Below are positions 12,332-33,638 of a DNA stretch of 64,000 nt, piece by piece. Numbering within the stretch: the first letter of the stretch is position 1; each line of letters starts with the position of its first letter. Location of the stretch: positions 4,503 to 68,502 of the forward strand of contig CAJTML010000002.1 in NCBI GenBank assembly GCA_910577495.1. Reading direction: 5' to 3'. Made by a program: the position numbers and the translations under genes. This DNA is from an uncultured Eggerthellaceae bacterium. Its GTDB lineage: Bacteria > Actinomycetota > Coriobacteriia > Coriobacteriales > Eggerthellaceae. The notes under the pieces were generated by a model. That model was not told the DNA's origin. It was given only the letters and a program-made list of their open reading frames with translations, and made no database searches.

Positions 12332-12376
12332 AAGGACCCCCTTTCTTATTGATTGGACAGTATACCCTGTTTTCAA

Positions 12377-12392: not shown

Positions 12393-12440
12393 TTGAAAAC
12401 AATATTTGTTTGTCGGCAAAAGAAAGCGATAAAGCAATAC

Positions 12441-13091: not shown

Positions 13092-13194
13092 ATCCCATAC
13101 CTTTAGTAGAATTATATTTTCCTTATCATAAAAAAATGTCTGGATAGTTTTCATCAACCATCCAGACATTCTATAAATACTATAAAGAAATAAA

Positions 13195-13743: not shown

Positions 13744-13839
13744 TTTATACTCCTTACTATTGCCAATCAGCTTACTTTAAGCTGTGAACTTCACCAAAAA
13801 CAAAACAAGGATATAGATACCTATATCCTTGCTGAAAGT

Positions 13840-14622: not shown

Positions 14623-14667
14623 TTCCTGATATCCCTTCTATAAGCAACACAAGTCCAAAGGTTTTAC

Positions 14668-14901
14668 CTAAGGAACAGGATCATATCCATGCGGACCACC
14701 AGGGCGACACTTTAATATGCGCTTAGCAGTTAAAACGAATCCCTTTTTAAATCCGTACCGACGAAAAGCTATCATCCCATACTCTGAACAAGTAGGAGTG
14801 AATCTACAGCAGGCAGGAAATAAAGGCGAAATAGCGCTTTGGTAAAACTTAATCAGAAAAATAGCTATATCAGTTAGTAGTTTTTGAAACTTCTCCCTCA
14901 T
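14668..14901 (-). CDS. yidD: Membrane protein insertion efficiency factor YidD
   Basis: YQSAISPLFPACCRFTPTCSEYG...CRPGGPHGYDPVP. The listed ORF (to 15126) overlaps rnpA. The ATG at 14901 (MREKFQ) gives the normal ~77 aa. Confidence 0.85.
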   Translation of the reverse strand: MREKFQKLLTDIAIFLIKFYQSAISPLFPACCRFTPTCSEYGMIAFRRYGFKKGFVLTAKRILKCRPGGPHGYDPVP

Positions 14902-15238
14902 ATAATCTATCCTTCGAAATTCCAGCGTCATAAAGTGCACGATCGCATGCAGTAAGCACTTTACTATAAGTAACCTCACAAATATTTGATTTTGCAAGAA
15001 ATACCACGTTATAAGCGCTCCAGGGACCAGAAAGCTCCTGACAAATTGCACGCATGCGTCTCTTTGCTCTATTCCTCCAAACAGCGTTACCGTATTTTTT
15101 ACCCGCAACAAAAGCAACACGACCATTGAGGTCGTGCTCTTTTGTTGGCAACACTATTAATGTTAAGTATGGTGTTCTTAAACGCTTGCCTGAAGAGAAG
15201 AGATTAGCAATCTCTTCTTTCGATTTGATTGTTTCCAA
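14870..15238 (-). CDS. rnpA: Ribonuclease P protein component
   Basis: 122 aa, in the conserved rpmH-rnpA-yidD-yidC order, with a basic RNase P protein pattern (...VAGKKYGNAVWRNRAKRRMR...). Confidence 0.88.
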   Translation of the reverse strand: METIKSKEEIANLFSSGKRLRTPYLTLIVLPTKEHDLNGRVAFVAGKKYGNAVWRNRAKRRMRAICQELSGPWSAYNVVFLAKSNICEVTYSKVLTACDRALYDAGISKDRLYEGEVSKTTN

Positions 15239-15250
15239 TCAAATCTCACC

Positions 15251-15385
15251 TTAGACGCAAAGACGCTTACGGCCTTTTGCGCGGCGCGCGGCCAATACCT
15301 TACGTCCGCCTTTCGTAGCCATACGAGCGCGGAAACCATGGCATTTGGCGCGTTTACGAGTGTTCGGTTGGTAAGTGCGCTTCAT
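15251..15385 (-). CDS. rpmH: 50S ribosomal protein L34
   Basis: Not in the ORF track because it is under 60 aa. Hand translation gives [44 protein letters not shown]. Confidence 0.93.
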
Positions 15386-15558
15386 GTTAGTCCCTTTCGT
15401 TTTTACATAGCAACTTAAGAAGTATAGCTATCTCACTCAAAAAGTCAATAATTACCTTGGCTTTTAGTGAAAAATATTTTTACCGCGCAATAGAGGAGAT
15501 CCAAAGGATAGATATAAGAGACACACGAATTACTTTTGTTCGATATTTTCTGGTCGCG

Positions 15559-15923
15559 ATTCCACGGTGTTTGTTGGAAATGTTGAAAACTGTACAATCA
15601 TTCGAGGAATATTGTGGAAAACCCTTGCAAGAGGTGTAAGTCAAGTATTTTTTTGAGGTCAACTTAAGCCGCGTTTTACCAGGTCAAGTAAGTTCGCTCG
15701 ATTGTATTTTTGCTTCTGATCTGGGATTTTAGAACAAACGCCATAGTGAGGAGTGCTGGAAATTTTTTACAAACTACAGAACCCCACGTCAAATGAGAAT
15801 TACTAGTAATTGCACCCAAAGAAACACTATTTAAGGTATCTGCTCATCATTTTAATAACAAAGCTTTGTGGTTTTCCACATTCCGAATCCTTGTTATTCA
15901 TTCAATTCGGGGAGTTTTCCACA
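15559..15923. promoter_or_regulatory. DnaA-box cluster (oriC-like region I) in the 700-bp non-coding gap downstream of the divergent point
   Basis: Three exact TTTTCCACA boxes: 15613..15621 (reverse orientation), 15872..15880 and 15915..15923. Weaker variants are TGTTGGAAA and TGTTGAAAA at about 15571-15589. Gene orientation switches here. Confidence 0.6.
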
Positions 15924-16087
15924 AAGTTTGAATAAATTGTTAGTAACTTTTTGTTTCACCTGTTGATTTCGCTATTATATATTTCAGATTTACTGAATTA
16001 TTCGCATATTCCACCGGAATATCTATTCCAATAATAGAAATAATCCCTGAATACCGATACAATGACGAATAATTCTTTCAGAATTTA

Positions 16088-17158
16088 TTGAATATAGATT
16101 CAATGCCTGGAACAACTATACCGAATATGAGTGAAAACGCAGATCAAACGATGAATACAGACAACAACACTCTAACAACGCCTCCTGACTATGCCTTTGT
16201 GGATTCCGTCGCACGCATTGCACTTTACGATGATCTACTCAGTGCACCACGGATGACCGAGATCCAACCGGATGAAACAGCAGCATTTCTAGAGACACTC
16301 GCTTCAACTATCTATAATCTTTCTCATGAAATTGGTGGAACGATCCCTTACACCATTATTAGAGAAGTGAGCGAGAACTTTATTCATGCTCAATTTAATG
16401 AACCGACCGTAACCATCCTTGATCATGGCAATACAATTCAATTCACTGATCAAGGTCCAGGTATCGAGCAAAAAGAAAAGGCACTTCGCCCGGCGTTTAC
16501 TACCGCCACTAAGGAAATGAAGTCTTATATTAGAGGTGTTGGATCAGGTCTTCCTATTGTTGCTGAATACCTGGAAGTGTCACGTGGTTATATCACTATC
16601 GAAGATAATCTTGGATCTGGTTCAGTTATCACAATTAGTCTCAATAAGAATGAAGACCACGAAAGCGTACAACCGCTTTATCAAACACCACAACAGCCAA
16701 CCCAACAACCAGTACAACAGATGCAACCGGTTTTACAACCAGAACCAATACAGGCGTACGCCCCAGTTGCTGTACAGCAAACACCTCTACAGCAACCTAT
16801 ACAATACGGGGTAGGACAACCAATGGTTCCACAACAAACACTACAACAACCGCAAATGGCTCCACACGTAGTGCCGGTTTATCCCCAGCAGACACAATAT
16901 CCACCGCAACAACAAGCTACCTATATACAAGTGCCTAAGCTTGACGAAAAAGAGCGCCAGATTCTTATTGAGTTACTCCAGCAAAACTACCTTGGGGTAA
17001 CGGATCTCACGCGTCTTACTAATATTCCTCAAGCAACTGTCCATTCAAAGTTAACGAAATTAGAAAAGAATGGCATGGTTATTACCGTAGATTCACCACG
17101 AAAAGGCCTCAGAGCTCTCACTGAATTTGGAGCCACGGTAGCGAAAACGTTGTTATAG
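16088..17158 (+). CDS. GHKL (anti-sigma/histidine-kinase-like) ATPase domain, Q/P-rich linker, C-terminal winged-helix DNA-binding domain
   Basis: 356 aa. N-box-like IREVSENFIHAQ, G1-like FTDQGPGI, G2-like RGVGSGLPIVAEYL...GSGSVITISL. About 100 aa of Q/P repeats follow. The C-terminus ERQILIELLQQNYLGVTDLTRLTNIPQATVHSKLTKLEKNGMV is a MarR/ArsR-like wHTH. The start is uncertain: TTG 16088, ATG 16103 or ATG 16127. Confidence 0.6.
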   Translation: MNIDSMPGTTIPNMSENADQTMNTDNNTLTTPPDYAFVDSVARIALYDDLLSAPRMTEIQPDETAAFLETLASTIYNLSHEIGGTIPYTIIREVSENFIHAQFNEPTVTILDHGNTIQFTDQGPGIEQKEKALRPAFTTATKEMKSYIRGVGSGLPIVAEYLEVSRGYITIEDNLGSGSVITISLNKNEDHESVQPLYQTPQQPTQQPVQQMQPVLQPEPIQAYAPVAVQQTPLQQPIQYGVGQPMVPQQTLQQPQMAPHVVPVYPQQTQYPPQQQATYIQVPKLDEKERQILIELLQQNYLGVTDLTRLTNIPQATVHSKLTKLEKNGMVITVDSPRKGLRALTEFGATVAKTLL

Positions 17159-17203
17159 TTTTACAAGAGTTGAGATATTTACCAACTGAGAACAGGTAGC
17201 GCA

Positions 17204-18733
17204 ATGGATAGTAATACATTAACGCAGTCATGGAATAGTGTTTGTGAGCAAATTAAGACCTACGACGGAGTAGATCCTTCGCAAGTTGATGCATTCTTTT
17301 CACGCATTCACCCTCAAGCAATGAGCGAAGGCTTTTTAATGCTTTCTGCTGATAATGACTTTATTAAATTCTTCATCGAACGCGATTTTCTACCTCATAT
17401 CAAACGCGCTTTAGAAGAACAGTTCTCAGTTCCTTTTACCGTTATGCTGGAAGTTGATCCACTTTCATCATCAAATGTATTACCAACGACAGAAACTGCA
17501 CCAGCACCTACCGCTCCTGTAACTCCAACTCCAGCTGTTACAGCACCGCAACCACCATCACAGACACAACCTCGGACTCAAGGCTTTCCTGAGACTGAAG
17601 ATTTATTACTGAATCCCGATTTTTACACCGAAGAGGTACCTCAAACACCTCAACAAAAGTCGCCACTTCCGCAAAACAACACGCTTTCCAGTTATACGTT
17701 CGAAAACTTTGTTATCGGTGACTCAAATAGGATTCCTTACACTATGGCAGTTACGGTAGCCGAACAACCAGGCAGACAAGCCTATAACCCACTCTTTATT
17801 TATGGGCGAAGTGGCCTGGGTAAAACACACTTGCTATGTGCAATGCGCAACTATATCGAAGAAACCCGTCCTGAGTTGAATACAATCTACGTTAACGCAG
17901 ATGAATTAGTAAACAACTACACCGAATCAGCGCTTGCATACGATAAAGATAAGTCCAGCTATAAGAACTTTAAAGATTTATACGAAGATGCAGATGTCCT
18001 CTTTATTGATGACGTGCAACAGTTGCAAGGTAAAAAACAAACCCTTGATATCGTGTTTCAGATCTTTAACACCTTAATCCATAAGGGCAAGCAGGTTGTT
18101 TTATCAGCTGACCGTGCCCCCCATAACATCGACATTGATGAGCGCTATTATTCCCGTTTCAACCAGGGTGGCACCTTCGACATTCAACCACCTGAGTTGG
18201 AAACAAAGCTCGGAATTATTAAGCTCTACATTAAAGACTATAACCAGACAAACCCTTATGATACGGTCGAAATACCTGATGACGTGCAGCTCTATATCGC
18301 CGAGAACTCAGGACCGAATATTCGCGAACTTAAGAGTGCGGTTCTCAAAATTATTTCCAAAATCAAGATCGAGCATTTAACCGATATGACAATTTCCGAT
18401 GTTCGCCGCGAGTTAGAGAACCATTTCTCAGGTGGATCATTTAGGCGTTTTACATCTGATGACATCATTGACCAGGTTAAAGCATTCTATAAAGTAAGCG
18501 ACAAAGACTTAAAGTCATCCAATCGCACACACAATGTTGCGTTTGCAAGGCAAGTTGCATTCTTCCTGATTAAGCAATTTACTGATCTGACGTTTCAAGA
18601 TATTGGAAAGCAATTTAACCGTCACCACTCAACCGTTATCACCTCGGTTCAAAAAATCGAGAAACTCATGATTAGTGATAGGGAAGTGAGCGAAGAAATT
18701 GACGTACTGTCAAAAATGATTCGCGAAGGATAA
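17204..18733 (+). CDS. dnaA: Chromosomal replication initiator protein DnaA
   Basis: 509 aa. Walker A GRSGLGKTHLL, box VII, domain IV ...NRHHSTVITSVQKIE..., and a P/T/Q-rich domain II linker. Confidence 0.95.
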   Translation: MDSNTLTQSWNSVCEQIKTYDGVDPSQVDAFFSRIHPQAMSEGFLMLSADNDFIKFFIERDFLPHIKRALEEQFSVPFTVMLEVDPLSSSNVLPTTETAPAPTAPVTPTPAVTAPQPPSQTQPRTQGFPETEDLLLNPDFYTEEVPQTPQQKSPLPQNNTLSSYTFENFVIGDSNRIPYTMAVTVAEQPGRQAYNPLFIYGRSGLGKTHLLCAMRNYIEETRPELNTIYVNADELVNNYTESALAYDKDKSSYKNFKDLYEDADVLFIDDVQQLQGKKQTLDIVFQIFNTLIHKGKQVVLSADRAPHNIDIDERYYSRFNQGGTFDIQPPELETKLGIIKLYIKDYNQTNPYDTVEIPDDVQLYIAENSGPNIRELKSAVLKIISKIKIEHLTDMTISDVRRELENHFSGGSFRRFTSDDIIDQVKAFYKVSDKDLKSSNRTHNVAFARQVAFFLIKQFTDLTFQDIGKQFNRHHSTVITSVQKIEKLMISDREVSEEIDVLSKMIREG

Positions 18734-18757
18734 TTGAAGAAATTGTGCAAATTGCAA

Positions 18758-18995
18758 TGTTGATAACTTCGAACAAACCATGCGGGAAGTTTGAGGAAAA
18801 CAACGGATTTTTTCGTAATGATAATTTCACCAATAAAATTTAGACAAACCGCCACAACCTAACCTCAGAGTTATGAAGGTGCGCACGGTGTCTCTTATAT
18901 GAGGAAATAAGGAGTTATCCACAAACTAACATCCCTTATTAAGATTATGAGTAAAACAAAGTTATAAAGATAAGATAAGAAAGAAAAATTAAAGT
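18758..18995. promoter_or_regulatory. dnaA-dnaN intergenic DnaA boxes plus an AT-rich tract (oriC-like region II, candidate DUE)
   Basis: Exact TTATCCACA at 18915..18923. A one-mismatch box (TTATCAACA, reverse orientation) at 18758..18766. A strongly AT-rich run at about 18935..18995 (…TTATTAAGATTATGAGTAAAACAAAGTTATAAAGATAAGATAAGAAAGAAAAATTAAAG…). Confidence 0.55.
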
Positions 18996-19088
18996 ACACC
19001 CGCTTGATCGAGATATTTAAATCTCATCAAGGTGTGCGATACTTACAACCTACGAAAAACTAGCCGCTCAAGGGACGTGAGGATCTTT

Positions 19089-20192
19089 ATGAAATTCAGT
19101 ATCAACAAAACTGAACTCCAGAATGCATTAGCTGTAGTCATGAAGGGTACTTCCACTCGTTCAACGCTTCCTATTCTTTCGGGTGTTTATATTGAAACCC
19201 AGGAAGATGCTCTTTTACTCCAGGCCACAGACTTAGAGCTTTCTATCCAATATCACACCTCCGCCCTTATTGAGGAACCGGGGAAAACGGTACTACCTGG
19301 TAAGCTTTTCTCAGACATCGTTAAAAGCATGCCCGATGCAGCAATCCATGTTGACATCAACGATGAAGCTGCGGTTATCACCTGCGACACCTCGTCGTTT
19401 TCAATTAAGACGCTTTCTGCTGAAGACTTTCCGGGATTCCCGCATGTTGATATTCAACAAGAAATTTCGGTTCCTTTCGACACGTTTGCTTCAATGGTTA
19501 AGCGTGTGGCGCGCATTGTTTCAAAAGACGAAAGCCGCGGCGTATTGCAGGGTGTTTTGATTACACTCAAAGAAAATCAGCTTCGACTGGTTGCAACTGA
19601 CTCGTATCGTGTTGCGGTAACTGATGCAGAGGTAGAGCAAACCGAAGCTACGGATTTCCAAGCGGTAATTCTTGGGTCTTTCTTACAAGAAATTGCGTCG
19701 CTTCCGCGCAGCGAAGAACCTATCTCTATTGCACTTGCAGAAAACCAAATTGTGATGAAGTATCAGGATACGGTGTTTATTAACCGCCGCATTGAAGGTA
19801 ACTACCCTAACTATCAACAGTTGCTTCCTACGTCATATGCTACTCGCGTTGAGATTCCAACTGATATGTTACTTGCAGCAGTGAAACGTATTTCGCTTTT
19901 GAGCCCGAATAACTCACGCGTTAAATTTGACATCAATGTTGATTCGCAGACGCTGCAGCTTTCAACGGTTGCCCAAGATGTGGGTTCAGCTCAAGAAATG
20001 CTTCCGGCAACCGTATTAGGTGAAGACAATGTGATTGGGTTTAACTATACCTACATCGTGGATGGCCTTACCTCTATTGTGACCGACAAAGTGATCTTCG
20101 AAATGCAAGCTCCTAATAAACCAGGTATTTTAAAGGCGGATCTTGGCGAAGATTACTTATATCTGGTTATGCCGGTTACCTTAGACGCGTAA
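19089..20192 (+). CDS. dnaN: DNA polymerase III beta sliding clamp
   Basis: MKFSINKTELQNAL... The ATG at 19089 is preferred over the listed 19032 start. It has the three-domain clamp length (367 aa). Confidence 0.93.
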   Translation: MKFSINKTELQNALAVVMKGTSTRSTLPILSGVYIETQEDALLLQATDLELSIQYHTSALIEEPGKTVLPGKLFSDIVKSMPDAAIHVDINDEAAVITCDTSSFSIKTLSAEDFPGFPHVDIQQEISVPFDTFASMVKRVARIVSKDESRGVLQGVLITLKENQLRLVATDSYRVAVTDAEVEQTEATDFQAVILGSFLQEIASLPRSEEPISIALAENQIVMKYQDTVFINRRIEGNYPNYQQLLPTSYATRVEIPTDMLLAAVKRISLLSPNNSRVKFDINVDSQTLQLSTVAQDVGSAQEMLPATVLGEDNVIGFNYTYIVDGLTSIVTDKVIFEMQAPNKPGILKADLGEDYLYLVMPVTLDA

Positions 20193-20199
20193 CGTATTA

Positions 20200-20215
20200 G
20201 GTTTCACGTGAAACT
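20200..20215. promoter_or_regulatory. parS-like site, 14/16, overlapping the recF start codon
   Basis: GGTTTCACGTGAAACT. The central GTG (20208..20210) is the first codon of the recF ORF. Confidence 0.6.
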
Positions 20216-21350
20216 CGCACTTAAGCGCTTAGAATTTCAGAACTTTCGCAATTATCAGAAGTTTGAGCTTTCTGATATTGGTAACCTGACGATTTTTGTG
20301 GGTCCTAATGCTGTTGGTAAAACCAATATCATTGAAGGTATGCAGCTGTTGACGGCGCAGACTTCGTTTCGCCATCCAAAAATTGAGCATCTTATATTAC
20401 AAGGTGAAGAAACGGCGCACTTGCAAGCAGAGGTTCGCGATGAGCAGCGGCGTCTTGATTTTGAGCTTCACTTAGCTGAGCATACGAAGAAGCATCTCTT
20501 AAATGGAAAGGTCAAGAAAATTGTCGAACTGAAAGGTATTTTGCCTTCAGTTGTTTTTACTCCTGATGATCTTGGTCTTATGAAGGGTTCTTCTTCGGTT
20601 CGTCGTCGCATGATTGATGAACTTGGCGTTCAGCTGACACCGAATTACTATCAGATTCTCAAAGACTACGAAAAGGTGATTCGCCATAAAAATACCCTAC
20701 TGAAAGAACACGCTTCTGATGCGCTTTTGGATAGCCTTGATGACTTGGTGGTTACCTGTGGTTCTCAATTAATGTGGTATCGATCGACCTTATTTCAGAA
20801 ATTGGTATCAAAAACGCATGAGATGTATCAGGAAGTTTCACGGAATAAAGAAGTCTTTTCGGCGAGCTATATTCCGTCATGGGATAAAAATGGCGAAAGA
20901 ATTGGCGAACTTTTAGAGATACAAAAATCAGATGCGCGTAAAAAACTCATCCAAGCGCTGCAGTATTATCGAGCGCAAGAACGCCAACGTGGGTATGCAG
21001 TCGTCGGTCCTCATGCTGACAAGATTGAGTTTTATCTCAACGATAACCCGGTGAGTATATTCGGAAGTCAAGGACAACAACGTAGTCTCGTTTTAGCGAT
21101 GAAGCTTGCGGAAGTTAAACTAATAGAAGAAACGCTGGATCAAAGCCCTCTCTTTTTACTTGATGACGTTATGAGTGAATTAGATGAGCAACGCAGGGAA
21201 TCGCTCTTACAGTTGGTAAGTGAGGATGTTCAAACTTGTATAACAACGGCGCATATGTCGTACTTTAATAACGAGACGCTTGCGTCTGCACAAGTTGTAC
21301 ATCTTCCGCATACAAATAGTGATAATGAGATGGAATCTAACGCCTTGTAA
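20208..21350 (+). CDS. recF: DNA replication and repair protein RecF
   Basis: 380 aa. Walker A GPNAVGKTNIIEG, signature ...GSQGQQRSLVLAMKLAE..., Walker B LFLLDDVMSELD. Confidence 0.92.
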   Translation: MKLALKRLEFQNFRNYQKFELSDIGNLTIFVGPNAVGKTNIIEGMQLLTAQTSFRHPKIEHLILQGEETAHLQAEVRDEQRRLDFELHLAEHTKKHLLNGKVKKIVELKGILPSVVFTPDDLGLMKGSSSVRRRMIDELGVQLTPNYYQILKDYEKVIRHKNTLLKEHASDALLDSLDDLVVTCGSQLMWYRSTLFQKLVSKTHEMYQEVSRNKEVFSASYIPSWDKNGERIGELLEIQKSDARKKLIQALQYYRAQERQRGYAVVGPHADKIEFYLNDNPVSIFGSQGQQRSLVLAMKLAEVKLIEETLDQSPLFLLDDVMSELDEQRRESLLQLVSEDVQTCITTAHMSYFNNETLASAQVVHLPHTNSDNEMESNAL

Positions 21351-21611
21351 TGCAGATTTTGGAAAAAATTTGAAATAAAACCGTTTAAGAGCCATACAGG
21401 CCGTTAGAGACGTCTTAATTCGCGTAGAAAAGTATACTTCTGTAAAGCCATATGATATACTTTTCGCTCAACATAAAACGTTCTATTTCAAACTCGTAAT
21501 TCTTACTTACTTATAAGCGTGTTCTCGTAGGGGTATATAAGTAGTAATGTGCCAATTTTGGATTTCATGGAATAGAAGCACTCAAAAGCAGCTCGAGACG
21601 AAGGAGTAAGT

Positions 21612-23558
21612 GTGGCTAAATCATCTGAGCACGAATACAGTGGTGCAGATATTCAAGTCCTTGAAGGACTTGAAGCAGTACGCAAACGACCTGGCATGTA
21701 TATTGGTTCAACCGGTCCGCGCGGTCTTCATCACCTGGTGTATGAGGTTGTAGACAATGCGGTTGACGAAGCATTAGCAGGTTATTGTGATACCATTGAT
21801 GTATGGATCCGCCGTGATAATTCAATTACCGTCGTAGATAATGGTCGCGGTATTCCGATCGATAAGCATCCGAAAGAAAAAATCCCAACCGTTGAGGTTG
21901 TACTTACTATCCTGCATGCCGGTGGTAAGTTCGGTGGCGAAGGCTACAAAGTTTCCGGTGGTCTTCATGGTGTAGGTGTTTCTGTTGTAAACGCACTTTC
22001 ATCAAAGGTTGTCGTGGATGTTCGCCGTGATGGTAAAGAATACGAGATTGCTTTCGAATATGGCAAGACATCTGAAAAGCTGCACGAAGTTGGTAAGGCA
22101 AAACATACTGGTACAACCGTGTCTTTCTGGCCGGATCCGACCATCTTTACTGAGTCAACGATTTACGATTTTGATACTCTAGCAAATCGTTTCCGCGAAA
22201 TGGCATTCCTGAATAAAGGTCTTCGCATCACCTTGCATGATGAACGTGTAACTGATGCAGAGGGTAATCCTCGCACTGAATCCTTTATGTATAAGGGCGG
22301 CATTGTTGACTTTGTTCAATACCTCAACCAAGGAAAAGAGACACTTAATAAGCCGATCTATTTTGAAGCTGAAAATGACAATGGTAGCGTAGAAATTGCT
22401 ATGCAGTGGAACGAAAGCTACTCAACAAATTCAGTATTAGCTTTCGCAAATAACATTAATACCCATGAAGGCGGCACGCATCTTGAAGGCTTCAAGAATG
22501 CGGTAACTCGTACTATTAATGAGTACGCGCGCGCCAAAAAATTCTTAAAAGAGAAAGACTCAAATTTAAGTGGCGATGATGCCCGTGAAGGTTTAGCAGC
22601 TATTATCTCTGTTAAACTTCATGACCCACAATTTGAAGGTCAGACGAAAACGAAGCTTGGTAATACGGAAATGCGCGGCCTCGTACAAGACGCTGTGCGT
22701 CAAGGGTTAGCTGACTTTTTAGAAGAAAATCCAACACCAGCAAAGCGGATTATCACAAAAGCAACCTCAGCCCTTCATTTACGTGAGCGTCTTCGTAAGA
22801 TTAAAGAAACTGAGCGCAATAAATCAGGTTTAGATTCACTATCGCTTCCTGGAAAACTTGCTGACTGTTCTTCGCGTAAACCTGAAGAAAGTGAAATTTT
22901 CATCGTAGAGGGTGACTCTGCAGGTGGTTCTGCAAAACAAGCGCGTGATCGTAAATATCAAGCAATTCTGCCACTGCGAGGTAAGATCCTAAACGTAGAA
23001 CGCGTTAATCCGCATAAAGCAATGACGAGTGAAACGATCAACTCACTCATTACCGCAATCGGTACGAATGTTGGTGAGAGTTTTGATGCTGATAAAGCAC
23101 GTTATCATCGCATTATTATTATGACCGACGCGGACGTTGACGGTGCTCATATTCGCTGTCTGTTGCTGACGTTCTTCTATCGTTATATGCCTGAACTTAT
23201 TAATCGTGGCTATATCTACATTGCGCAACCGCCGATCTTTGGTTTAAAGAAAAAGAATTCTCGTAGCCCCAAGATTGAGCGTTACATCTATGATGAAAGT
23301 GCTTTGTCGTCAGTGCTGGCAGAGTATGAAGATCCCTCGAAATTCGACGTTCAGCGTTACAAGGGTCTGGGTGAGATGGACCCCGAGCAGCTTTGGGAAA
23401 CCACGATGGAACCGGCAACCCGAACGCTCTTACAAGTCAATATTGATGACGCCGCTGAAGCAGAACGTGTTGTGAGCGAGCTCATGGGCGACATTGTTGA
23501 ACCTCGTAAAGAGTTCATCCAAAAACACGCTCGCGACGTGCGTTTCTTGGATATTTAA
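21612..23558 (+). CDS. gyrB: DNA gyrase subunit B
   Basis: 648 aa. GTG start 5 nt after AAGGAG. Motifs YSGADIQVLEGLEAVRKRPGMYIGS, EGDSAGG, PLRGKILNVE. Confidence 0.96.
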   Translation: MAKSSEHEYSGADIQVLEGLEAVRKRPGMYIGSTGPRGLHHLVYEVVDNAVDEALAGYCDTIDVWIRRDNSITVVDNGRGIPIDKHPKEKIPTVEVVLTILHAGGKFGGEGYKVSGGLHGVGVSVVNALSSKVVVDVRRDGKEYEIAFEYGKTSEKLHEVGKAKHTGTTVSFWPDPTIFTESTIYDFDTLANRFREMAFLNKGLRITLHDERVTDAEGNPRTESFMYKGGIVDFVQYLNQGKETLNKPIYFEAENDNGSVEIAMQWNESYSTNSVLAFANNINTHEGGTHLEGFKNAVTRTINEYARAKKFLKEKDSNLSGDDAREGLAAIISVKLHDPQFEGQTKTKLGNTEMRGLVQDAVRQGLADFLEENPTPAKRIITKATSALHLRERLRKIKETERNKSGLDSLSLPGKLADCSSRKPEESEIFIVEGDSAGGSAKQARDRKYQAILPLRGKILNVERVNPHKAMTSETINSLITAIGTNVGESFDADKARYHRIIIMTDADVDGAHIRCLLLTFFYRYMPELINRGYIYIAQPPIFGLKKKNSRSPKIERYIYDESALSSVLAEYEDPSKFDVQRYKGLGEMDPEQLWETTMEPATRTLLQVNIDDAAEAERVVSELMGDIVEPRKEFIQKHARDVRFLDI

Positions 23559-26428: not shown

Positions 26429-26474
26429 AGTATGGGTAAAGAGGGTACTTCACTTCTTTACCCATACTTTTTTA
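26429..26474 (+). terminator. Intrinsic terminator after gyrA
   Basis: AGTATGGGTAAAG...CTTTACCCATACT (13-bp stem) followed by TTTTTT. Confidence 0.75.
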
Positions 26475-26516: not shown

Positions 26517-26741
26517 ATGGTTCTTGTATTTAATCCTGATCATCCGTTCACGCTGAGAGAGCAGCAAATTCTTTACTTCGCCGCTCAAGGGCTATCGAAT
26601 AAAGAAATTGCTGATCACTTAGTGGTGTCCGAACAAACCGTGAAGACACATTTGTCACATATGCTCACCAAATCACTGCGCGCTAACAGAACATCTCTGG
26701 TGGTGTATGGGTTTGAGAGCGGGATTCTCCAGAAACGATAA
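26517..26741 (+). CDS. Small stand-alone LuxR/GerE-type HTH protein
   Basis: 74 aa: LREQQILYFAAQGLSNKEIADHLVVSEQTVKTHLSHMLTK. Confidence 0.7.
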   Translation: MVLVFNPDHPFTLREQQILYFAAQGLSNKEIADHLVVSEQTVKTHLSHMLTKSLRANRTSLVVYGFESGILQKR

Positions 26742-26785: not shown

Positions 26786-27622
26786 GTGATTTACATCGTT
26801 CTTCTGGTTGTTTGTATCGCACTCTATATTGTTTCGGGTGTTGCTTGTGCGCTGGTGGCAGTAAAGGGGAATCAAACACTTAAACACTTCGCGAAATATC
26901 TCTATCTTGCCGCGTTTATTCTTCATTCAGTCTTTATTGGATTGAGCTCTGTATCTACAGCAGGCACGTTATTAACCGGTCCAAATATTGCAATGTTGGG
27001 GGCATGGGTGATTGCAGGCGTTGCGTTGGTGATGCTGCTCTTCAAGAACAAGGCATACACCTACGCAATGTTTTCAGCTCCGGCAATTGTGATACTCATT
27101 CTCATCTCGTTTTACCTTCACTTCAGTATGTATGGAGATGCTATTTCAAATGCCGTATATTATCGCTGGCCAATGCTTGTTGTTCATATTGTGCTCGTGT
27201 TTTTGGCGGCAGCATGTTTTATGGTCTCTGCGGCAGCTTCAGGAACTTTTCTCTATCAAAGTCACCTTATGCAAAAACATAGCGTGCAAATTCTGCGCGT
27301 TGATACCCCTGCACTTAACACCCTTTCGCGCGTCGGCCGCGTCGCAATTTTGGCGGGTGTAGTGCTCTTTTTTGTTGCCATGCTCATTGGTTTTATCAGG
27401 TTGGTGGTATTAGGTGACGCGCACGTAATCGCAAACGTCTTCACCACCGAGCAGTATCTGCTACCACGCATCATTTTTTCACTAGTCGTTTTCGCCATTT
27501 ATTGTTTGTATCTTGTGTTTGCGTATTTTATTCCGTACTCCGTAAGCGGAAAAACTCGCGCGATCTTATCCCTTATAGGATTCGTGGGCGTTGTTGTGCT
27601 GATTGTTGTGTCGGCGTGGTGA
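26786..27622 (+). CDS. HemX-like / cytochrome-c-assembly-family polytopic membrane protein
   Basis: 278 aa with about 8 hydrophobic helices. Size and position (adjacent to a hemA-like gene) match Firmicute-type hemX. I see no W-rich WWD heme-handling motif. Confidence 0.5.
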   Translation: MIYIVLLVVCIALYIVSGVACALVAVKGNQTLKHFAKYLYLAAFILHSVFIGLSSVSTAGTLLTGPNIAMLGAWVIAGVALVMLLFKNKAYTYAMFSAPAIVILILISFYLHFSMYGDAISNAVYYRWPMLVVHIVLVFLAAACFMVSAAASGTFLYQSHLMQKHSVQILRVDTPALNTLSRVGRVAILAGVVLFFVAMLIGFIRLVVLGDAHVIANVFTTEQYLLPRIIFSLVVFAIYCLYLVFAYFIPYSVSGKTRAILSLIGFVGVVVLIVVSAW

Positions 27623-28697
27623 TGTTGTGGCAGTCGTGGTAGTTGGGATCAACCCAAAAAGAGCAGTATTTCACGCACTTTCATCACTCGTCCAAACTAC
27701 TGATGGCAAAAAGCGCGTCCTGGCGAACATAGTGGAAGATCGCGCAATTCAAGAAGCAACTATTTTGTATCGACCGTATCGGTTTGAGTTGTATTGTGTA
27801 ACGAATGAGGTAACCGATACTGCTTCGACGGTCGCGCGAGCATTGGCTGATTTGAGTGCCATTTCCTTTTCGGAAGTTTTGGCAAGTTGTTATTACGCGG
27901 AAAATACTGACGCGCTTGATCATTTGGTTTCACTTGTTGCTGATAGTTGTGCTGAACTTGAGAGTAAGCCATTCGCCATTATTTCAGACGCGGGCGAGTT
28001 CACGTCGTATAACACCTATGAGGATCCAGGGTTTTTCGCCGCACTCCAAAAAGCGGCACAGGGTGTTCAGCGCAAACAAGCGGGCGAATCCACGTTAGGC
28101 TACCTGTTTGAAGCCGCGGGTAGCTTCAATCAGCAACTCCTCCAAGAGACTCAAACTCCTTCTGCGAGCAGCATTAACTTCGTTATTCAGACGCTCGTGC
28201 AGCGCATGTTTGACAATATCCCGCGCCGTGCCACGCTCTTCTTAGGCGGCAGTCACCATGCGCAAAGCGCGGCAATGGCGCTCATGGAGATAGGTGCGTC
28301 ACGCTTCGCCGTAATTGGAACAAGTCAAGAATCGCATAATCTCTCAACGCTTTTGCAGGCGCGCTTATGTGCGGAAAACGTCTTAAATCTTGAGTTGGCG
28401 AAGGCAGACATGGTTATAGTTGCAGAAACTGCGTTGGCGCCGCGTTTGGATAAGAAGATCTTTAAGCAAATTCGCAAAGACAGACGTGATAGATTGCTGT
28501 TGGTTTTAGATCTCACGCCTGAGGGTAGTGTGGACAATAAAATCACCAACTTAGATGGTGTGTATTTATATCGCGCGCAAGATCTCCTTATGATGGCAGC
28601 CTCGCTTCCTGGTGCACCCAATAACGCCGCTTCGGTTGAGACGCAAATTGCAGCAAAAGTGGTTGATCTTGCAACTGAGCTGGGTATTTCCTTGTAA
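27603..28697 (+). CDS. Glutamyl-tRNA reductase (HemA)-like protein with degenerate catalytic and NADPH motifs
   Basis: It is collinear with HemA: VVVVGINPKRA…, EATILYRPYRFELYCV (where HemA has STCNRTE), LFLGGSHHAQSA (where HemA has GAGxxG), LAKADMVIVAE, LVLDLTPEGS...LDGVYLYRAQDL. The likely start is GTG 27624, just after the upstream stop at 27620-27622. Confidence 0.55.
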   Translation: MLCRRGDVVAVVVVGINPKRAVFHALSSLVQTTDGKKRVLANIVEDRAIQEATILYRPYRFELYCVTNEVTDTASTVARALADLSAISFSEVLASCYYAENTDALDHLVSLVADSCAELESKPFAIISDAGEFTSYNTYEDPGFFAALQKAAQGVQRKQAGESTLGYLFEAAGSFNQQLLQETQTPSASSINFVIQTLVQRMFDNIPRRATLFLGGSHHAQSAAMALMEIGASRFAVIGTSQESHNLSTLLQARLCAENVLNLELAKADMVIVAETALAPRLDKKIFKQIRKDRRDRLLLVLDLTPEGSVDNKITNLDGVYLYRAQDLLMMAASLPGAPNNAASVETQIAAKVVDLATELGISL

Positions 28698-28841
28698 ACC
28701 GTTCGCAAGCAACTGGCTTCTTCACCGTATAAAAGTAATCCGTATATAACTTATTGAGCGCGCATATCACTCGGTTGGGTGATGGCCGGCATATAGAAAA
28801 TCCCTATCCTGTGGTGCACTGGAGAAATAGGGAGGTATTAC

Positions 28842-29948
28842 GTGATAGTTTCATGGATGACCACAAATAGGTGCAATCTGCGTTGCGTGCATTGCTACCA
28901 AGACGCTGAGGAAGCAACCGACAAAGAGCTTTCCACCGATGAAGCAAAAAAGATGATTAGCGAAATTGCGCGCGCAGGATTTAAGATCATGATATTTTCT
29001 GGTGGCGAGCCGCTGCTTCGACCAGATATCTTTGATCTTGTATCCTATGCCGCCTCGCTTGGGCTTCGCCCGGTATTCGGCTCAAACGGCACGCTCATTA
29101 CCCCCGAAGTTGCGCATCGTCTTAAGGAGTGCGGCGCGTGCGCCATGGGAATTTCAGTGGACAGTTTGGTTCCTGAAAAGCACGACAAATTCCGCGGCTT
29201 GGAATCTGCATATGAGCTAACCATGAAGGGCATTGACGCCTGTAAAGAAGCGGGGCTGCCGTTTCAGCTTCACACGACGGTGGTTGATTGGAACCGCGAC
29301 GAGGTGTGCGACATCACCGACTTCGCCGAAGAAATTGGTGCGCAGGCGCACTATATTTTCTTCTTAATTCCGGTTGGACGTGGCGAATACATCCAAGACA
29401 CCAGCTTAGAGGTGCTGGAAAACGAAGCGCTGCTGCGCGAGATTATGACGAAATCAGCTGAGGTTTCCATTGATGTGAAGCCGACGTGCGCACCGCAGTT
29501 CACGCGTGTGGCGAAGCAGCTGGGTATTGAGAACCGTTTTACGCGCGGGTGCCTTGCGGGACTGACGTATTGCGTCATCGGGAGCGAAGGCATTGTTCGC
29601 CCGTGTGCCTACATGACTGAAGAAGCGGGCGATGTTCGCGAACAACCCTTCGACGAAATCTGGGAAACCAGCCTCATTTTCCAACGTCTTCGCACACAAG
29701 CCTACGAAGGCGCTTGTGGCAGCTGCGATTACAAAGAGATGTGCGGTGGGTGCCGCGCGCGTGCAGCGTATTACCACGATGGCGATATCTTGGCGCAAGA
29801 CGATTATTGCGCGTATGGTCAAAACTCATCACTGAATAGGGGTTTACATGAAAAAGGTTTCAAAACAAGCAATCTTGTTGGTAGGTGCCGCACTAGCTTG
29901 CTCACTTGCGCTCTTCGGTTGCTCGCAAGCAGAGCAACCGCAGTCTGA
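28842..29948 (+). CDS. Radical SAM / SPASM-type protein of the AhbC-AhbD-NirJ (alternative heme / heme d1) family
   Basis: GTG start after GGGAGG. Motifs TNRCNLRCVHCY, FSGGEPLLRPD, KPTCAPQF, and C-terminal Cys motifs GACGSCDYKEMCGGCRARA...DDYCAY. The last ~40 codons overlap the next gene by 101 nt. Confidence 0.7.
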   Translation: MIVSWMTTNRCNLRCVHCYQDAEEATDKELSTDEAKKMISEIARAGFKIMIFSGGEPLLRPDIFDLVSYAASLGLRPVFGSNGTLITPEVAHRLKECGACAMGISVDSLVPEKHDKFRGLESAYELTMKGIDACKEAGLPFQLHTTVVDWNRDEVCDITDFAEEIGAQAHYIFFLIPVGRGEYIQDTSLEVLENEALLREIMTKSAEVSIDVKPTCAPQFTRVAKQLGIENRFTRGCLAGLTYCVIGSEGIVRPCAYMTEEAGDVREQPFDEIWETSLIFQRLRTQAYEGACGSCDYKEMCGGCRARAAYYHDGDILAQDDYCAYGQNSSLNRGLHEKGFKTSNLVGRCRTSLLTCALRLLASRATAV

Positions 29949-30906
29949 AACGGCAGACCCGACGACCGCGCCGGCCGAGCAAACTACCCCCGCTGATCAA
30001 GCCGACAACACCGCCACAGACGTAAAAGTGGATGACGAACAACCCGCCGGACCAGTGACGTTTACGGATGATATGGGTAACGAAGTCACCGTGGATAACC
30101 CCCAGCGCGTCGTTGCATGCATGGGCAGTTTCGCCAACGCGTGGGAGTTAGCAGGCGGTAAGTTGGTCGGAGTTTCTGATGATGCACTAACCTCTGATGG
30201 ATTTACGATCCAAAGTGCTGATGTTGCAACCGTGGGTGATTTTACCAACGTTAATTTGGAATCCATCGTCGCGCTTGAACCTGATTTTGTCATCATGACC
30301 AGCGGCACGGGTGGTCGCGGCGGAGACTCCAGCCAGGCAGACTTGCGCGAAGCGTTGGTGGCATCCGGCATCCCTGTGGCGTACTTTGAGGTGACCACTT
30401 TTGAGGACTACCTGCGCATGATGCGCACCTTCGCCGACATTACGGGCGACGAAGCTGCCTATGAGCAAAACGCCGGTTCATTGGAGGAGGCCGTCAAAAA
30501 AATCGTGGGCGAAGTCCCTGCTGACCAAGACGTCACCGCGCTGGTTATGACGACGTTTTCAGGTGGCACCCGCGTGCAGAATTCTGGCACGATGACGGGA
30601 GCTATGCTTGCTGACCTTGGTGTTCGCAATCTGGCCGACGAAAACCCCAGCTTGCTGAAAGACTTTAGTTTGGAATCAGTGATTGAGTTCAACCCGGATT
30701 ACATCTTTGTTATTCCGATGGGTAACGACGTTGAAGCGGCAACCGCAAACCTCAACGAAGCCACCGCCGCCAACCCGGCATGGTCAACGCTTTCGGCAGT
30801 ACAAAACGGCAACTACATCGTGTTAGATCCCATGCTGTTCTTGTCAAAACCTAATGCTCACTGGGATGACGCTTACCAGACACTCTTCGACGAACTCTAC
30901 AACTAA
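29848..30906 (+). CDS. ABC transporter substrate-binding lipoprotein, class III (iron-siderophore/heme/cobalamin type)
   Basis: Lipoprotein signal MKKVSKQAILLVGAALACSLALFGC. The body resembles the FecB/BtuF family (…VVACMGSFANAWELAGGKLVGVSDD…DFVIMT…). Confidence 0.75.
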   Translation: MKKVSKQAILLVGAALACSLALFGCSQAEQPQSETADPTTAPAEQTTPADQADNTATDVKVDDEQPAGPVTFTDDMGNEVTVDNPQRVVACMGSFANAWELAGGKLVGVSDDALTSDGFTIQSADVATVGDFTNVNLESIVALEPDFVIMTSGTGGRGGDSSQADLREALVASGIPVAYFEVTTFEDYLRMMRTFADITGDEAAYEQNAGSLEEAVKKIVGEVPADQDVTALVMTTFSGGTRVQNSGTMTGAMLADLGVRNLADENPSLLKDFSLESVIEFNPDYIFVIPMGNDVEAATANLNEATAANPAWSTLSAVQNGNYIVLDPMLFLSKPNAHWDDAYQTLFDELYN

Positions 30907-30965: not shown

Positions 30966-31976
30966 ATGAGCAAATCGGTGAAGTCGTCGAACAAACACAT
31001 CGTCGCATTAGCGGTGACGGTCATCCTGCTGGTTGCCGTCACCGTGGCGGCGTTTACCATGGGGTCGTCTTCGGTGAGCGTGGCGGAACTGTTCGCGTGG
31101 CTCACTGGGGGAGAACTCGCCCAAACCGCGCAAAGTATCATCGTTAATACTCGCGCGCCGCGTGTATTTGCGGCACTGTTGGCTGGTGGCGCCTTAGCTG
31201 CAGCGGGCGCTATCATCCAGGCTACGCTTGATAATCCGCTGGCCAGTCCTAATGTGATCGGCATCAATTCAGGTGCGGGTTTATTTGTTCTCATAGCAGC
31301 TTCAGTATTTCCGGGATTTTTGTGGCTACCCTCACTGGCGGCGTTTGTTGGAGCGCTTGTCAGTGCAAGTATTATCTTTGGGCTTTCTTTAGGTTCGGGA
31401 GTTTCGCGCCTGACGGTGGTCTTAGCTGGTATTGCTATCACCACCGTTTTTGGCGCGGGCATGAACACCATTCTCATCATCAATCCGGATGCCTACATTG
31501 GCTCGTCGACGTTTTTGGTGGGTGGCCTTTCAGGAGTGCTGGCGAAAGATTTAGTCTATCCAGCCATACTTATTCTCGGGGGAGTTGTGGTTGCAATTCT
31601 AACGGCGCCCGTGTTGAATATCTTGTCGCTTGGCGACGAAACCGCACACAGCCTTGGCATGAATGTCTCAATGGTACGGATGGGACTACTTGCCTTGGCT
31701 GCGGTGTTGTCGGGTGCTGCGGTGAGTTTTGCTGGATTGCTTGGTTTTGTGGGTCTGGTCGTGCCGCATGTGGTGCGCTTTTTGGTGGGGCACGACAACA
31801 AGTGGGTAATTCCGCTTTCCATTCTGGGCGGTGCGGCGTTTGTGGTGGGTTGCGACCTCATTGCGCGCACTGCCTTCGCCCCCTACGAAATTCCCGTGGG
31901 CATTTTGATGGCGTTTATCGGCGGGCCGTTCTTCATCTACCTGATTCTAAGGAACCGCAATGGCAGCCTTGATTAA
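30966..31976 (+). CDS. FecCD-family ABC permease
   Basis: 336 aa, polytopic. …RAPRVFAALLAGGALAAAGAIIQ…NPLASPNVIGINSGA… and the typical C-terminus GGPFFIYLILR. Confidence 0.85.
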   Translation: MSKSVKSSNKHIVALAVTVILLVAVTVAAFTMGSSSVSVAELFAWLTGGELAQTAQSIIVNTRAPRVFAALLAGGALAAAGAIIQATLDNPLASPNVIGINSGAGLFVLIAASVFPGFLWLPSLAAFVGALVSASIIFGLSLGSGVSRLTVVLAGIAITTVFGAGMNTILIINPDAYIGSSTFLVGGLSGVLAKDLVYPAILILGGVVVAILTAPVLNILSLGDETAHSLGMNVSMVRMGLLALAAVLSGAAVSFAGLLGFVGLVVPHVVRFLVGHDNKWVIPLSILGGAAFVVGCDLIARTAFAPYEIPVGILMAFIGGPFFIYLILRNRNGSLD

Positions 31977-32802
31977 CACGTCCACCACCACGCAAGCGGA
32001 AATGCAACAACCTGCAATTCAGCCACCCGCCATTGCATTTCAAGATGTCAGCTTTAGCTACCGACCTGATCGCGTCCTCATTGACCAGCTGAGCACGAAA
32101 ATTCAGCAAGGGTGCGTGACCAGCATCATTGGACCGAACGGCTCAGGTAAATCAACGCTTGTTAAGTTGGCGAATGGGCTTATCAAACCGCAACGCGGGA
32201 CAGTGTCAGTAGCGGGTCAAAACGTCGGTCATATGAGTGCGAAGCTGCGCGCGCAAACGATGGCGGTGCTGGCGCAAAGTATGCGTGTGCCGCAGATGAG
32301 TGTTGAGGCGTTGGTAGCGTGTGGTCGCCATCCGCACCAGAGTTTTCGCGGCGCGCCGAGCGAGCACGACAAAGCTGCTGTTGAGCGCGCGCTTCAGCTG
32401 GCAGGGGTTGAGGATATTCGCACCAGCCAGATGGCAAGTTTGTCGGGCGGTCAGCGCCAGCGTGCTTTTTTAGCTATGACGCTTGCCCAAGAAACCGATC
32501 TCATCTTACTTGATGAACCCACCACCTATCTGGATATTCGCGCGTGTCATGATTTAATGGAGCTCATTTGCACGCTTAATAAGACGCAACAAAAAACAAT
32601 CGTGATGGTTATTCATGATCTTGATCTGGCACTGCGCTATTCGGATCGGCTCCTTGTCATGGATAAAGGAACACTCCTTGGCGAAGGCACCACCGCAGAT
32701 GTTATGGCCAGTGGTGTAATAGAACGCGCATTCTCAATGGAGATCTGCCCGCATTCTTATCGGGGCGAACAGGGATATGTGCTCTATCCGTTTGAGGGCT
32801 AG
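31960..32802 (+). CDS. ABC transporter ATP-binding protein (FecE/FepC-like)
   Basis: Walker A GPNGSGKST, signature LSGGQRQRAFLA, Walker B LILLDEPT. It overlaps the permease stop. Confidence 0.88.
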   Translation: MAALINTSTTTQAEMQQPAIQPPAIAFQDVSFSYRPDRVLIDQLSTKIQQGCVTSIIGPNGSGKSTLVKLANGLIKPQRGTVSVAGQNVGHMSAKLRAQTMAVLAQSMRVPQMSVEALVACGRHPHQSFRGAPSEHDKAAVERALQLAGVEDIRTSQMASLSGGQRQRAFLAMTLAQETDLILLDEPTTYLDIRACHDLMELICTLNKTQQKTIVMVIHDLDLALRYSDRLLVMDKGTLLGEGTTADVMASGVIERAFSMEICPHSYRGEQGYVLYPFEG

Positions 32803-32807
32803 GTAGA

Positions 32808-33323
32808 CTACTCTTCCTCAAAATCCTGCGGTGCCAAGATCGCGATAAACTCGTGGAACTGATCCAGCTCCTCTTCCATATCCAGGCTGTTTTCGCGCTT
32901 TCGTAAAACATAGGGAAACGAGGCGCGCTCAAGCACACTCTCTTCAATGTAGATAGGCGCTTTTTGCCTGATGGCAAGTGCCATGGCGTCGCTCGGGCGT
33001 GCGTCCAACTCAATCAAGCGGTCATGTTGCTGTAAGGTGAGTCGGGCGAAAAAGGTTGTCCCTTTGACGTCGTTAATGATGACGTGATCAATGCGTGCGT
33101 CCAAATTGGTGAGCGCATCTAAAAACAGATCATGCGTCATAGGGCGAGAAAACCTGGTTTGTTCTAACGCCAATGAAAGCTGTGCGGCTTCATTAGTGCC
33201 AATCCAAATAGGTACCACGCGAAAAATACCAGGTTGCACTGCCTCTTCAAAAGGTTGTAAGACCACCACGGAGGAAACCGGACCGTTCGACACGATAAGC
33301 ATTTGGATGGAAACAGGAACCAC
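32808..33323 (-). CDS. Bifunctional nuclease family protein (DUF151-type)
   Basis: 171 aa. …VPIWIGTNEAAQLSLALE…RPMTHDLF…ARPSDAMALAIR…PIYIEESVLE matches the pattern of this family. Confidence 0.7.
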   Translation of the reverse strand: MVPVSIQMLIVSNGPVSSVVVLQPFEEAVQPGIFRVVPIWIGTNEAAQLSLALEQTRFSRPMTHDLFLDALTNLDARIDHVIINDVKGTTFFARLTLQQHDRLIELDARPSDAMALAIRQKAPIYIEESVLERASFPYVLRKRENSLDMEEELDQFHEFIAILAPQDFEEE

Positions 33324-33425
33324 AACGCCTTCTTTCGCCTGTGTTCAAAAAATATTTCTCCACATTATAAAATAGTTCTTGACCCGCACCTCTCGTTTGT
33401 TATAAAGTAGTCAAGCACTTTTCTT

Positions 33426-33502
<77 letters not shown>

Positions 33503-33512
33503 TTATGTTGCG

Positions 33513-33556
33513 ATAAACGCTCCACCGTGAGCCGAGTTAGCCGGTGGAGCGTTTAT
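33513..33556 (+). other. 15-bp perfect hairpin between the two tRNA genes
   Basis: ATAAACGCTCCACCG - 14-nt loop - CGGTGGAGCGTTTAT. It has no long U-tract, so it could be a processing element or a weak terminator. Confidence 0.4.
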
Positions 33557-33562
33557 TAACGT

Positions 33563-33638
33563 GGGGCGTTAGCTCAGCTGGGAGAGCGCGGGCTTTGCAA
33601 GCCTGAGGTCAGGGGTTCGATCCCCCTACGCTCCACCA
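33563..33638 (+). tRNA. tRNA-Ala (anticodon TGC)
   Basis: Acceptor GGGGCGT/ACGCTCC with the G3:U70 alanine identity pair, anticodon loop TTTGCAA, encoded CCA. Confidence 0.92.

Follow-up and report, generated by a model that had tools for sequence, protein, structure and literature searches.

What does a glutamyl-tRNA reductase (GluTR) without its catalytic cysteine do in a bacterium that lacks a haem pathway, and why does it stand next to a HemX-like membrane protein? The question is raised by a stretch of 64,000 nucleotides (the window, meaning this whole stretch) from contig CAJTML010000002.1 of an uncultured Eggerthellaceae bacterium (assembly GCA_910577495.1). An earlier note, written from the letters of the window, had described a HemX-like protein, a degenerate HemA paralogue and a radical SAM enzyme there, and had proposed a repurposed, non-catalytic HemA-HemX pair tied to tetrapyrrole modification or uptake. 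Family-wide losses, an absent pathway, purifying selection and haem-related neighbours all agree with that proposal. The locus is a variant of the HemX-GtrR system, in which a GluTR pseudoenzyme stands with HemX and a GerE-type regulator in tetrapyrrole auxotrophs, ahead of salvage genes. Taken together, the descriptive parts of this result (pseudoenzyme, origin, auxotrophic host and conserved module) can be regarded as highly probable.

The HemA-like protein, encoded by the open reading frame (ORF) 27603-28697, is collinear with GluTR, as had been claimed. It matched GlutR_N PF05201 (34.2 bits, cut-off 27), Shikimate_DH PF01488 (36.5 bits) and the GluTR model TIGR01035 (E 4.6e-23), although the last score, 81.8 bits, lies below the equivalog cut-off of 209.55; canonical HemA proteins of Eggerthellaceae scored 444-456 bits. 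The profile of its family matched the GluTR structure 1GPJ at E 4e-37, and the AlphaFold2 (AF2) model (pLDDT 88) has the GluTR fold, with the top seven PDB folds in Foldseek all being GluTR (E 2e-15 to 3e-13). A word-based protein search with the same query returned only the protein itself and three weak canonical HemAs, and a pattern scan of genome contigs with P0002 gave no match.

Compared with GluTR (TIGR01035; 1GPJ, 4N7R), the protein has kept the fold of the catalytic and NADPH domains, the Arg, Glu and His of the glutamate pocket and a place inside the HemA tree, and has lost the catalytic Cys (Cys48 in M. kandleri and Cys50 in E. coli), the GExQI block, the GxGxxG motif and the dimerisation domain. 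These motifs were mapped in an alignment with six canonical GluTR proteins and in a profile alignment to 1GPJ and 4N7R. The segment LYRPYRFE, which had been read as a degenerate catalytic motif, is indeed in register with (S/T)xCNRxE, and Pro58 (ORF numbering) occupies the position of the Cys. Similarly, GGSHHA aligns with the GAGxMG form of the NADPH-binding GxGxxG motif, of which the first Gly alone is invariant across the Cys-less family, and the GETQILGQV-type block that had been called unrecognisable is replaced by a variable insert, the sole low-confidence part of the AF2 model. The dimerisation region was correctly described as missing (no match to PF00745 in a family scan of the protein), and the protein stops about 80-100 residues short of the canonical GluTR end. 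Regarding the start, the adjacency to the HemX gene holds, but the overlapping start at TTG 27603 is less likely than GTG 27627, 4 nt after the HemX stop (TGA 27620-27622), because the same arrangement is seen for a 99%-identical database protein (P0005) and at every related locus. Judging from these replacements, the protein has probably lost the ability to form the thioester intermediate or to bind NADPH normally.

The loss extends to a whole family. When 1.84 billion representative proteins were searched exhaustively with HMMER, 942 matches resulted, the best 150 of which were inspected for the Cys motif, by regular expression or by eye; about 14 clusters among these 150 were Cys-less, and the other full-length matches carried the canonical motif (CNR; CHR in two). 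With genome copies added, 28 Cys-less sequences formed one clade (SH-aLRT 100, stem length 1.0), all 28 of them without Cys at the catalytic position. GxGxxG, the GExQI block and the dimerisation domain are likewise absent across the members, with P0018 and P0020 keeping GGGxxC at the Rossmann position. The window protein sits on a very long branch, its nearest relative being 33% identical. A repeated origin of the Cys-less state was rejected, since a single change suffices on the tree.

The clade is sister to the HemA of the Ahb haem operon in other Eggerthellaceae/Coriobacteriales. In two genomes of other Eggerthellaceae genera (G012 and G007), this operon reads GerE - HemX - canonical hemA - hemC - cobA/hemD - ahbC, and continues with ahbD and ahbA/B in G012 and with hemB and ahbA/B in G007. 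The window GerE and HemX-like proteins are 57-61% and 36-38% identical to those at the operon head, respectively, so that the window appears to keep the head of a siroheme-dependent haem operon whose body has been lost; the HemX-like gene adjoins the HemA-like gene here, and its orthologue adjoins canonical hemA there. G012 has two canonical hemA genes, one in the Ahb operon headed by GerE and hemX and the other near hemB and ferrochelatase on a different contig (hemA-related coordinates L014:6858-8138 and L012, G012:C4:48604-49614). As the alignments A2 and A3 were too divergent for search patterns, the HemX alignment was used instead for locus retrieval, and yielded 16 loci, all from Adlercreutzia, Enterorhabdus or other Eggerthellaceae. 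The Cys-less HemA-like gene occurs in at least four genera, always directly behind GerE and HemX.

In the window, seven genes on the + strand, from GerE to the ABC (ATP-binding cassette) ATPase, follow gyrB, gyrA and a terminator. The GerE/LuxR gene, which belongs to the conserved module, was absent from the earlier note. The features are as follows.

26429..26468, + strand: strong intrinsic terminator of gyrA, with a 16-bp stem and then a T run; left edge of the module.
26517..26741, + strand: 74-aa stand-alone GerE/LuxR-type helix-turn-helix protein (PF00196, 58.7 bits); candidate DNA-binding output.
26786..27622, + strand: HemX-like membrane protein with eight transmembrane segments (PF01578, 34.4 bits, cut-off 29.9) and a CcsA/CcmF fold.
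27627..28697 (ORF open from TTG 27603), + strand: HemA-like, GluTR-derived pseudoenzyme of 356 aa from GTG, identified by family scans and alignments.
28767..28785, + strand: weak candidate operator containing ATCAC-N8-GTGAT (8.9 bits), 75 nt upstream of the nirJ2 start.
28842..29948, + strand: NirJ2-type radical SAM/SPASM enzyme (TIGR04055, 518 bits, cut-off 500).
29848..30906, + strand: lipoprotein substrate-binding protein (SBP) of a haem/siderophore/B12-class ABC importer (PF01497, 101 bits; lipobox signal peptide).
30966..31976, + strand: FecCD-family ABC permease (PF01032, 278 bits).
31960..32802, + strand: ABC ATPase (PF00005, 102 bits); right edge of the module.

In the congeners G001 and G003, gyrA is followed within ~270 nt by DNA equivalent to the window from ~32845 onward, which indicates that the module (~26.4-32.8 kb) either was inserted in this genome or has been deleted from theirs. 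DNA of the locus is present in mouse gut metagenomes and isolates. Four mouse-gut runs labelled as metatranscriptomes, three of which are probably DNA, contained only fragments of 151-351 nt from the locus, and no contig among them spans a gene junction. Just past the right border (32808-33638) lie a gene with a bifunctional-nuclease domain on the - strand, tRNA-Ile(GAT) and tRNA-Ala(TGC). Farther to the left, the G+C content at 8000-22000 is 0.40-0.42, against 0.51-0.58 on its left and 0.44-0.55 on its right, and this part may be a foreign island.

The genome offers no pathway that a reductase could feed. A search of the own genome (94% complete) for a canonical hemA, hemL, hemB, hemC or uroporphyrinogen decarboxylase (URO-D) gene, a check that had been proposed at the outset, found none of them, and hemB, hemC and URO-D were not found in four Adlercreutzia genomes either. 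Across a sample of 151 Eggerthellaceae genomes, eight carry a Cys-less HemA-like gene, namely this genome alone in the window's genus, 4/4 Adlercreutzia, 1/3 of the genus g18 and 2/2 of g79. None of these eight carriers has hemB, compared with 48 of the 50 genomes with a canonical HemA. Ferrochelatase is present in the own genome and in all four Adlercreutzia genomes; the own copy stands alone among housekeeping genes (TIGR00109, 239 bits; G000:C14:11387-12358, L049:6370-7383). In the same sample, ferrochelatase was found in 125 genomes and hemB in 52, most pathway-less members retaining ferrochelatase as their single gene of this kind, a pattern that points to porphyrin salvage or to a different function of this enzyme. 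The organism would nevertheless need haem, because its genome encodes ccmC and ccmF (G000:C113).

These data bear on one alternative, in which the HemA-like protein, as a cryptic enzyme or an RNA binder, still acts on glutamyl-tRNA, tRNA(Glu) or a carboxylate ligand, with altered chemistry or as a binding protein. E62 and H107 do not vary between canonical and Cys-less proteins and R60 hardly does, as would suit a retained glutamate pocket, and the GGGxxC of P0018 and P0020 points in the same direction. Nevertheless, the nucleophile is gone from every member, the GExQI block has given way to a disordered insert, most members no longer have the NADPH motif, and no hemL, hemB or hemC is at hand to use a product; we therefore consider this explanation improbable.

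The other half of the pair, the HemX-like protein, has the eight hydrophobic segments that had been reported, and PF01578 (Cytochrom_C_asm) scores above its cut-off. Its AF2 model (pLDDT 82) gave CcsBA (7s9y, TMq 0.63) and CcmF (6zmq) as best folds, and its profile matched none of the PDB sequences. In the alignment (A5), no WWD motif is present, H134 is invariant and H47 nearly so, and both histidines lie in transmembrane helices. A role as the organism's cytochrome c synthase was rejected, because a different contig encodes CcmC and CcmF, which also occur in HemX-less congeners. ResB was not found in the own genome.

The two proteins, represented by a 15-row HemX-like alignment and a 21-row HemA-like alignment, were folded together, as had also been proposed. 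The predicted complex had an ipSAE of 0.71 (0.73, 0.71 and 0.71 in three runs), against 0.01 for the best control. Of 80 solved complexes, 58 reached this ipSAE mark, as did 2 of 110 mismatched pairs, counts that apply here only roughly because own alignments were used. The runs shared at least 98% of contacts, with a pLDDT of at least 72 for the partner. The score is not the recall of a known complex, because no sequence relative of HemX has a solved structure. In the model, the contacts of HemX are residues 158-181 and 246-256, which would be cytoplasmic loops 5 and 7 according to the positive-inside rule and the published N-out topology with eight transmembrane segments (PMC5801465). Those of the HemA-like protein, numbered from GTG 27627, are residues 186-196, 283-290 and 307-327. 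Most of the invariant residues of both families fall in these stretches, namely Y157, L161, S166, P175, L180 and P250 of HemX, and F195, R286, R287, R289 (in the basic R286-R289 loop), D310, Y315 and D319 of the HemA-like protein. As several of the HemA-like contact residues are conserved in canonical GluTR, the contact may be ancestral. Direct binding of HemX to the HemA-like protein has the support of this structural model.

The clustering at the predicted interface also bears on whether the pair does anything at all. The hemX and hemA genes could be a functionless relic of the lost Ahb operon, open by chance or because of read-through needs. The pair indeed evolves far faster than its neighbours: the median NG86 ratio of nonsynonymous to synonymous substitution rates (dN/dS) among Adlercreutzia species was 0.46 for the HemA-like and 0.31 for the HemX-like gene, compared with 0.10-0.19 for GerE, NirJ2, SBP, permease and SecDF, and several catalytic motifs have been lost in a pair that congeners do without. 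However, these medians are inflated because dS is saturated, and in the three closest species pairs (dS 0.43-0.54), dN/dS of the HemA-like gene was 0.19-0.28, which indicates purifying selection rather than decay. The HemA-like ORFs are intact in at least four genera at 24-33% identity, the 22 columns that are invariant in the family alignment cluster at the predicted interface, both AF2 models are confident, and the 4-nt gene junction is conserved. Moreover, the pair is kept without adjacent cargo in A. equolifaciens DFI.6.87. A functionless relic is thus very improbable.

Downstream, the cargo of the module concerns haem as well. The enzyme that had been called AhbD/NirJ-like contains a Radical_SAM domain (PF04055, 104 bits), a SPASM domain (PF13186, 36 bits) and CxxxCxxC at residues 11-18 (Cys 11, 15 and 18), as described, and exceeds the NirJ2 cut-off; its score with the AhbD model TIGR04545 is 340 bits against a cut-off of 500, AhbD being nevertheless the nearest enzyme type that has been characterised. 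The NirJ2 ORF reaches 101 nt into the SBP gene (29848-29948), where an evident lipoprotein signal peptide sets the SBP start, and the last ~40 residues of NirJ2 lie outside the family model. AhbD is an oxygen-independent coproheme decarboxylase that has been found in anaerobic Gram-positives without other enzymes of the alternative haem biosynthesis (AHB) route (PMC13564367). The window NirJ2 resembles it as a radical SAM protein with a SPASM domain, and differs in being linked to an ABC importer in an organism without upstream steps of the AHB or coproporphyrin-dependent (CPD) routes, a setting that implies salvage rather than synthesis. From its family assignment, NirJ2 is a probable anaerobic coproheme decarboxylase. 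A derivation from the AhbD of the old operon was not supported, since the identity to that protein is only 39% and the sequence fits the NirJ2 model and not the AhbD model. The window NirJ2 shares 84-88% identity with the Adlercreutzia copies and 83% with that of G087, compared with 78.5-79% with a copy linked to a MerR-family regulator in congeners; being nearer to other genera than to congeners, it hints at lateral acquisition of the module. The importer that follows is of the haem/siderophore/B12 type, as had been recognised, with a lipoprotein SBP, a FecCD permease and an ATPase, and its SBP matched the IsdE-type haem SBP with 62 bits and BtuF with 32 bits.

The same head is combined with different cargo in relatives. 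Every Adlercreutzia, Enterorhabdus and G087 locus has, in this position, a counterpart of the window GerE with 66-73% identity, and the order at the head in relatives is SecDF, a DUF1292 gene and then GerE-HemX-HemA-like. The conserved DUF1292 protein (107 aa), which lies between SecDF and GerE at L016:2897-3220 and at the equivalent position of 15 Adlercreutzia/Enterorhabdus loci, is missing from the window module. The head is followed by NirJ2-SBP-permease-ATPase in 11 relative loci and G087, by a convergent NEAT-Shp-SBP-permease-ATPase haem uptake operon in three loci, and by no adjacent cargo in A. equolifaciens DFI.6.87. On contig L023, a DUF454 gene lies directly after the HemA-like gene. 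In the congeners G004 and G005, NirJ2-SBP-permease-ATPase stands behind the MerR-family regulator mentioned above (L044:6084-11711 and L045:4649-9882, respectively), and no GerE, HemX or HemA-like gene was found at that locus; the regulator has a C-terminal domain of ~200 aa to which no family is assigned.

A shared operator is a further link among these genes. Relatives carry a 19-nt element, TAGSCCGWWYGGGYGATG, with a box resembling a -10 element ~20-25 nt further on. Both the GerE/hemX and the hemA-like/nirJ2 gaps of all NirJ2-type Adlercreutzia loci contain the 19-nt element; in G087 it was found at the GerE-hemX site only, in Shp-type loci it lies upstream of the NEAT gene, and in G012 it precedes hemX of the canonical operon. 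In the rest of the Adlercreutzia genomes, the element also stands ahead of rluD-hemH and of DUF454 genes (three genomes in each case) and of ccmE-ccmF, and it is absent from the MerR-type cassettes. Coordinates of the element are L024:9902-9919 and 11888-11905, L025:17764, L053:9156 and 3271, L050:2844, L055:2804, L056:585 and L057:896. The element marks a candidate haem regulon in Adlercreutzia, comprising hemX-hemA-like, nirJ2-ABC or NEAT-Shp-ABC, rluD-hemH, ccmE-ccmF and DUF454 (YbaN-like). A position weight matrix (PWM) of the Adlercreutzia operator gave 43 sites of at least 11 bits elsewhere in the own genome, where the exact palindrome ATCAC-N8-GTGAT has two copies, about the number expected by chance.

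The pair can also be read in terms of haem trafficking, with HemX as a membrane haem handler and the HemA-like protein as its cytoplasmic docking or chaperone partner, imported or salvaged haem being passed to membrane or exported haem proteins and transcription not being controlled. The CcsBA and CcmF folds, the two transmembrane histidines and the presence of the hemX-hemA-like genes of relatives in one regulon with uptake, hemH and ccm genes suit this proposal, which the predicted complex fits equally well. On the other hand, the HemX-like protein has no WWD motif and the HemA-like family no conserved haem-ligand pattern, the sole documented role of HemX is the control of GtrR abundance (PMC5801465), and congeners with the same cargo and ccm genes manage without the pair. 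We regard trafficking as unlikely, though less so than a relic or a cryptic enzyme.

Among the three roles that had been offered for the pair (sensor, chaperone or regulator), we infer a regulatory or sensing one, which is favoured by the GerE partner, the origin from the Ahb operon, the shared operator and the predicted complex. GerE, the HemX-like protein and the HemA-like protein would be the retained control head of the ancestral Eggerthellaceae Ahb haem operon after the loss of tetrapyrrole synthesis. The HemA-like protein would keep the surface through which it contacts HemX at cytoplasmic loops 5 and 7, the complex would report haem or porphyrin status, and together with the small GerE-type DNA-binding protein it would set the expression of the downstream salvage cassette. 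The lipoprotein-SBP importer would then take up a porphyrin, with or without iron; to judge from its setting, coproheme or coproporphyrin III is the most likely substrate. The stand-alone ferrochelatase encoded elsewhere would metallate the imported porphyrin if needed, and NirJ2 would carry out an oxygen-independent decarboxylation of coproheme, supplying haem b to c-type cytochromes and other haem proteins. We put the probability that the HemX/HemA-like module senses haem status or regulates at roughly 0.55.

Several observations weigh against this view. When the operator PWM was applied to the own genome, neither ccm nor hemH nor the region ahead of hemX showed a convincing site, and the best match in the window between 26.3 and 33 kb, at 28767, reached only 8.9 bits, although its position is equivalent to that of the HemA-NirJ2 sites of Adlercreutzia. 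GerE was named as the protein binding the element from adjacency, being the sole regulator that is always adjacent. In relatives, the hemX-hemA-like genes are themselves downstream of the operator, which suits a haem-handling component as well as a sensor. The HemA-like family has no invariant Cys and one invariant His, and thus no obvious haem ligands. Six congeners lack the HemX/HemA-like pair, which is therefore dispensable in close relatives, and two of them run the same NirJ2-ABC cassette. Finally, the pair is only 24-50% identical between genera, compared with 84-88% for NirJ2, a fast evolution that is consistent with constraint on a few surfaces alone.

In comparison with the HemX-GtrR systems of B. 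subtilis (hemAXCDBL) and S. aureus, the locus shares a gene for a CcsA-family protein with eight transmembrane segments beside a GluTR-family gene, and in Eggerthellaceae as well the ancestral place of the two genes is at the head of a haem operon. It differs in its order of hemX and then hemA with a 4-nt junction, in a GluTR partner without Cys, NADPH motif or dimerisation domain, in a host without hemB, hemC, hemL or URO-D, in a GerE-type regulator that belongs to the module, and in preceding salvage and uptake genes rather than biosynthesis genes. A regulatory link between an actinobacterial haem-pathway protein and haem uptake is also reported for the coproheme decarboxylase ChdC, a negative regulator of this uptake in Mycobacterium tuberculosis (PMC12962153); ChdC is of a different family and still catalytic, whereas the enzyme here is dead and paired with HemX.

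The locus matters for a long-standing problem. HemX lowers GtrR abundance post-transcriptionally in response to haem, but the mechanism of this control of GluTR has been open since 1994 and is called undiscovered in reviews (PMC10991733), and no HemX partner is known (PMC5801465). The Eggerthellaceae pair provides a natural separation of function, in which catalysis, cofactor binding and dimerisation are lost and the invariant residues map to the predicted HemX interface; this interface offers specific residues to mutate, both here and in Bacillus or Staphylococcus. The pair is also an exception to the reported rule that hemX co-occurs invariably with gtrR and haem synthesis (PMC5801465, PMC10991733), since hemX and gtrR-type genes are found here in a host where de novo haem genes were not found.

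A wider proposal, which we offer as tentative, is that the ancestral second role of GluTR was that of cytoplasmic partner of HemX in a haem-sensing switch, and that this is the sole role surviving in the auxotrophs. HemX would capture the dead GluTR, or cause its turnover, in a haem-dependent manner and thereby set the activity of GerE, which through one operator would control a regulon of import, coproheme decarboxylase, ferrochelatase, cytochrome c maturation and DUF454. The shared operator defines such a candidate haem regulon in culturable Adlercreutzia species. Overall, the locus points to an anaerobic haem route in common gut Actinomycetota that leads from ABC import through ferrochelatase to NirJ2, and this route may explain the haem supply for their many respiratory reductases. 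If the tentative proposal is true, these bacteria could live on coproporphyrin, coproheme or haem derived from the host or from neighbours.

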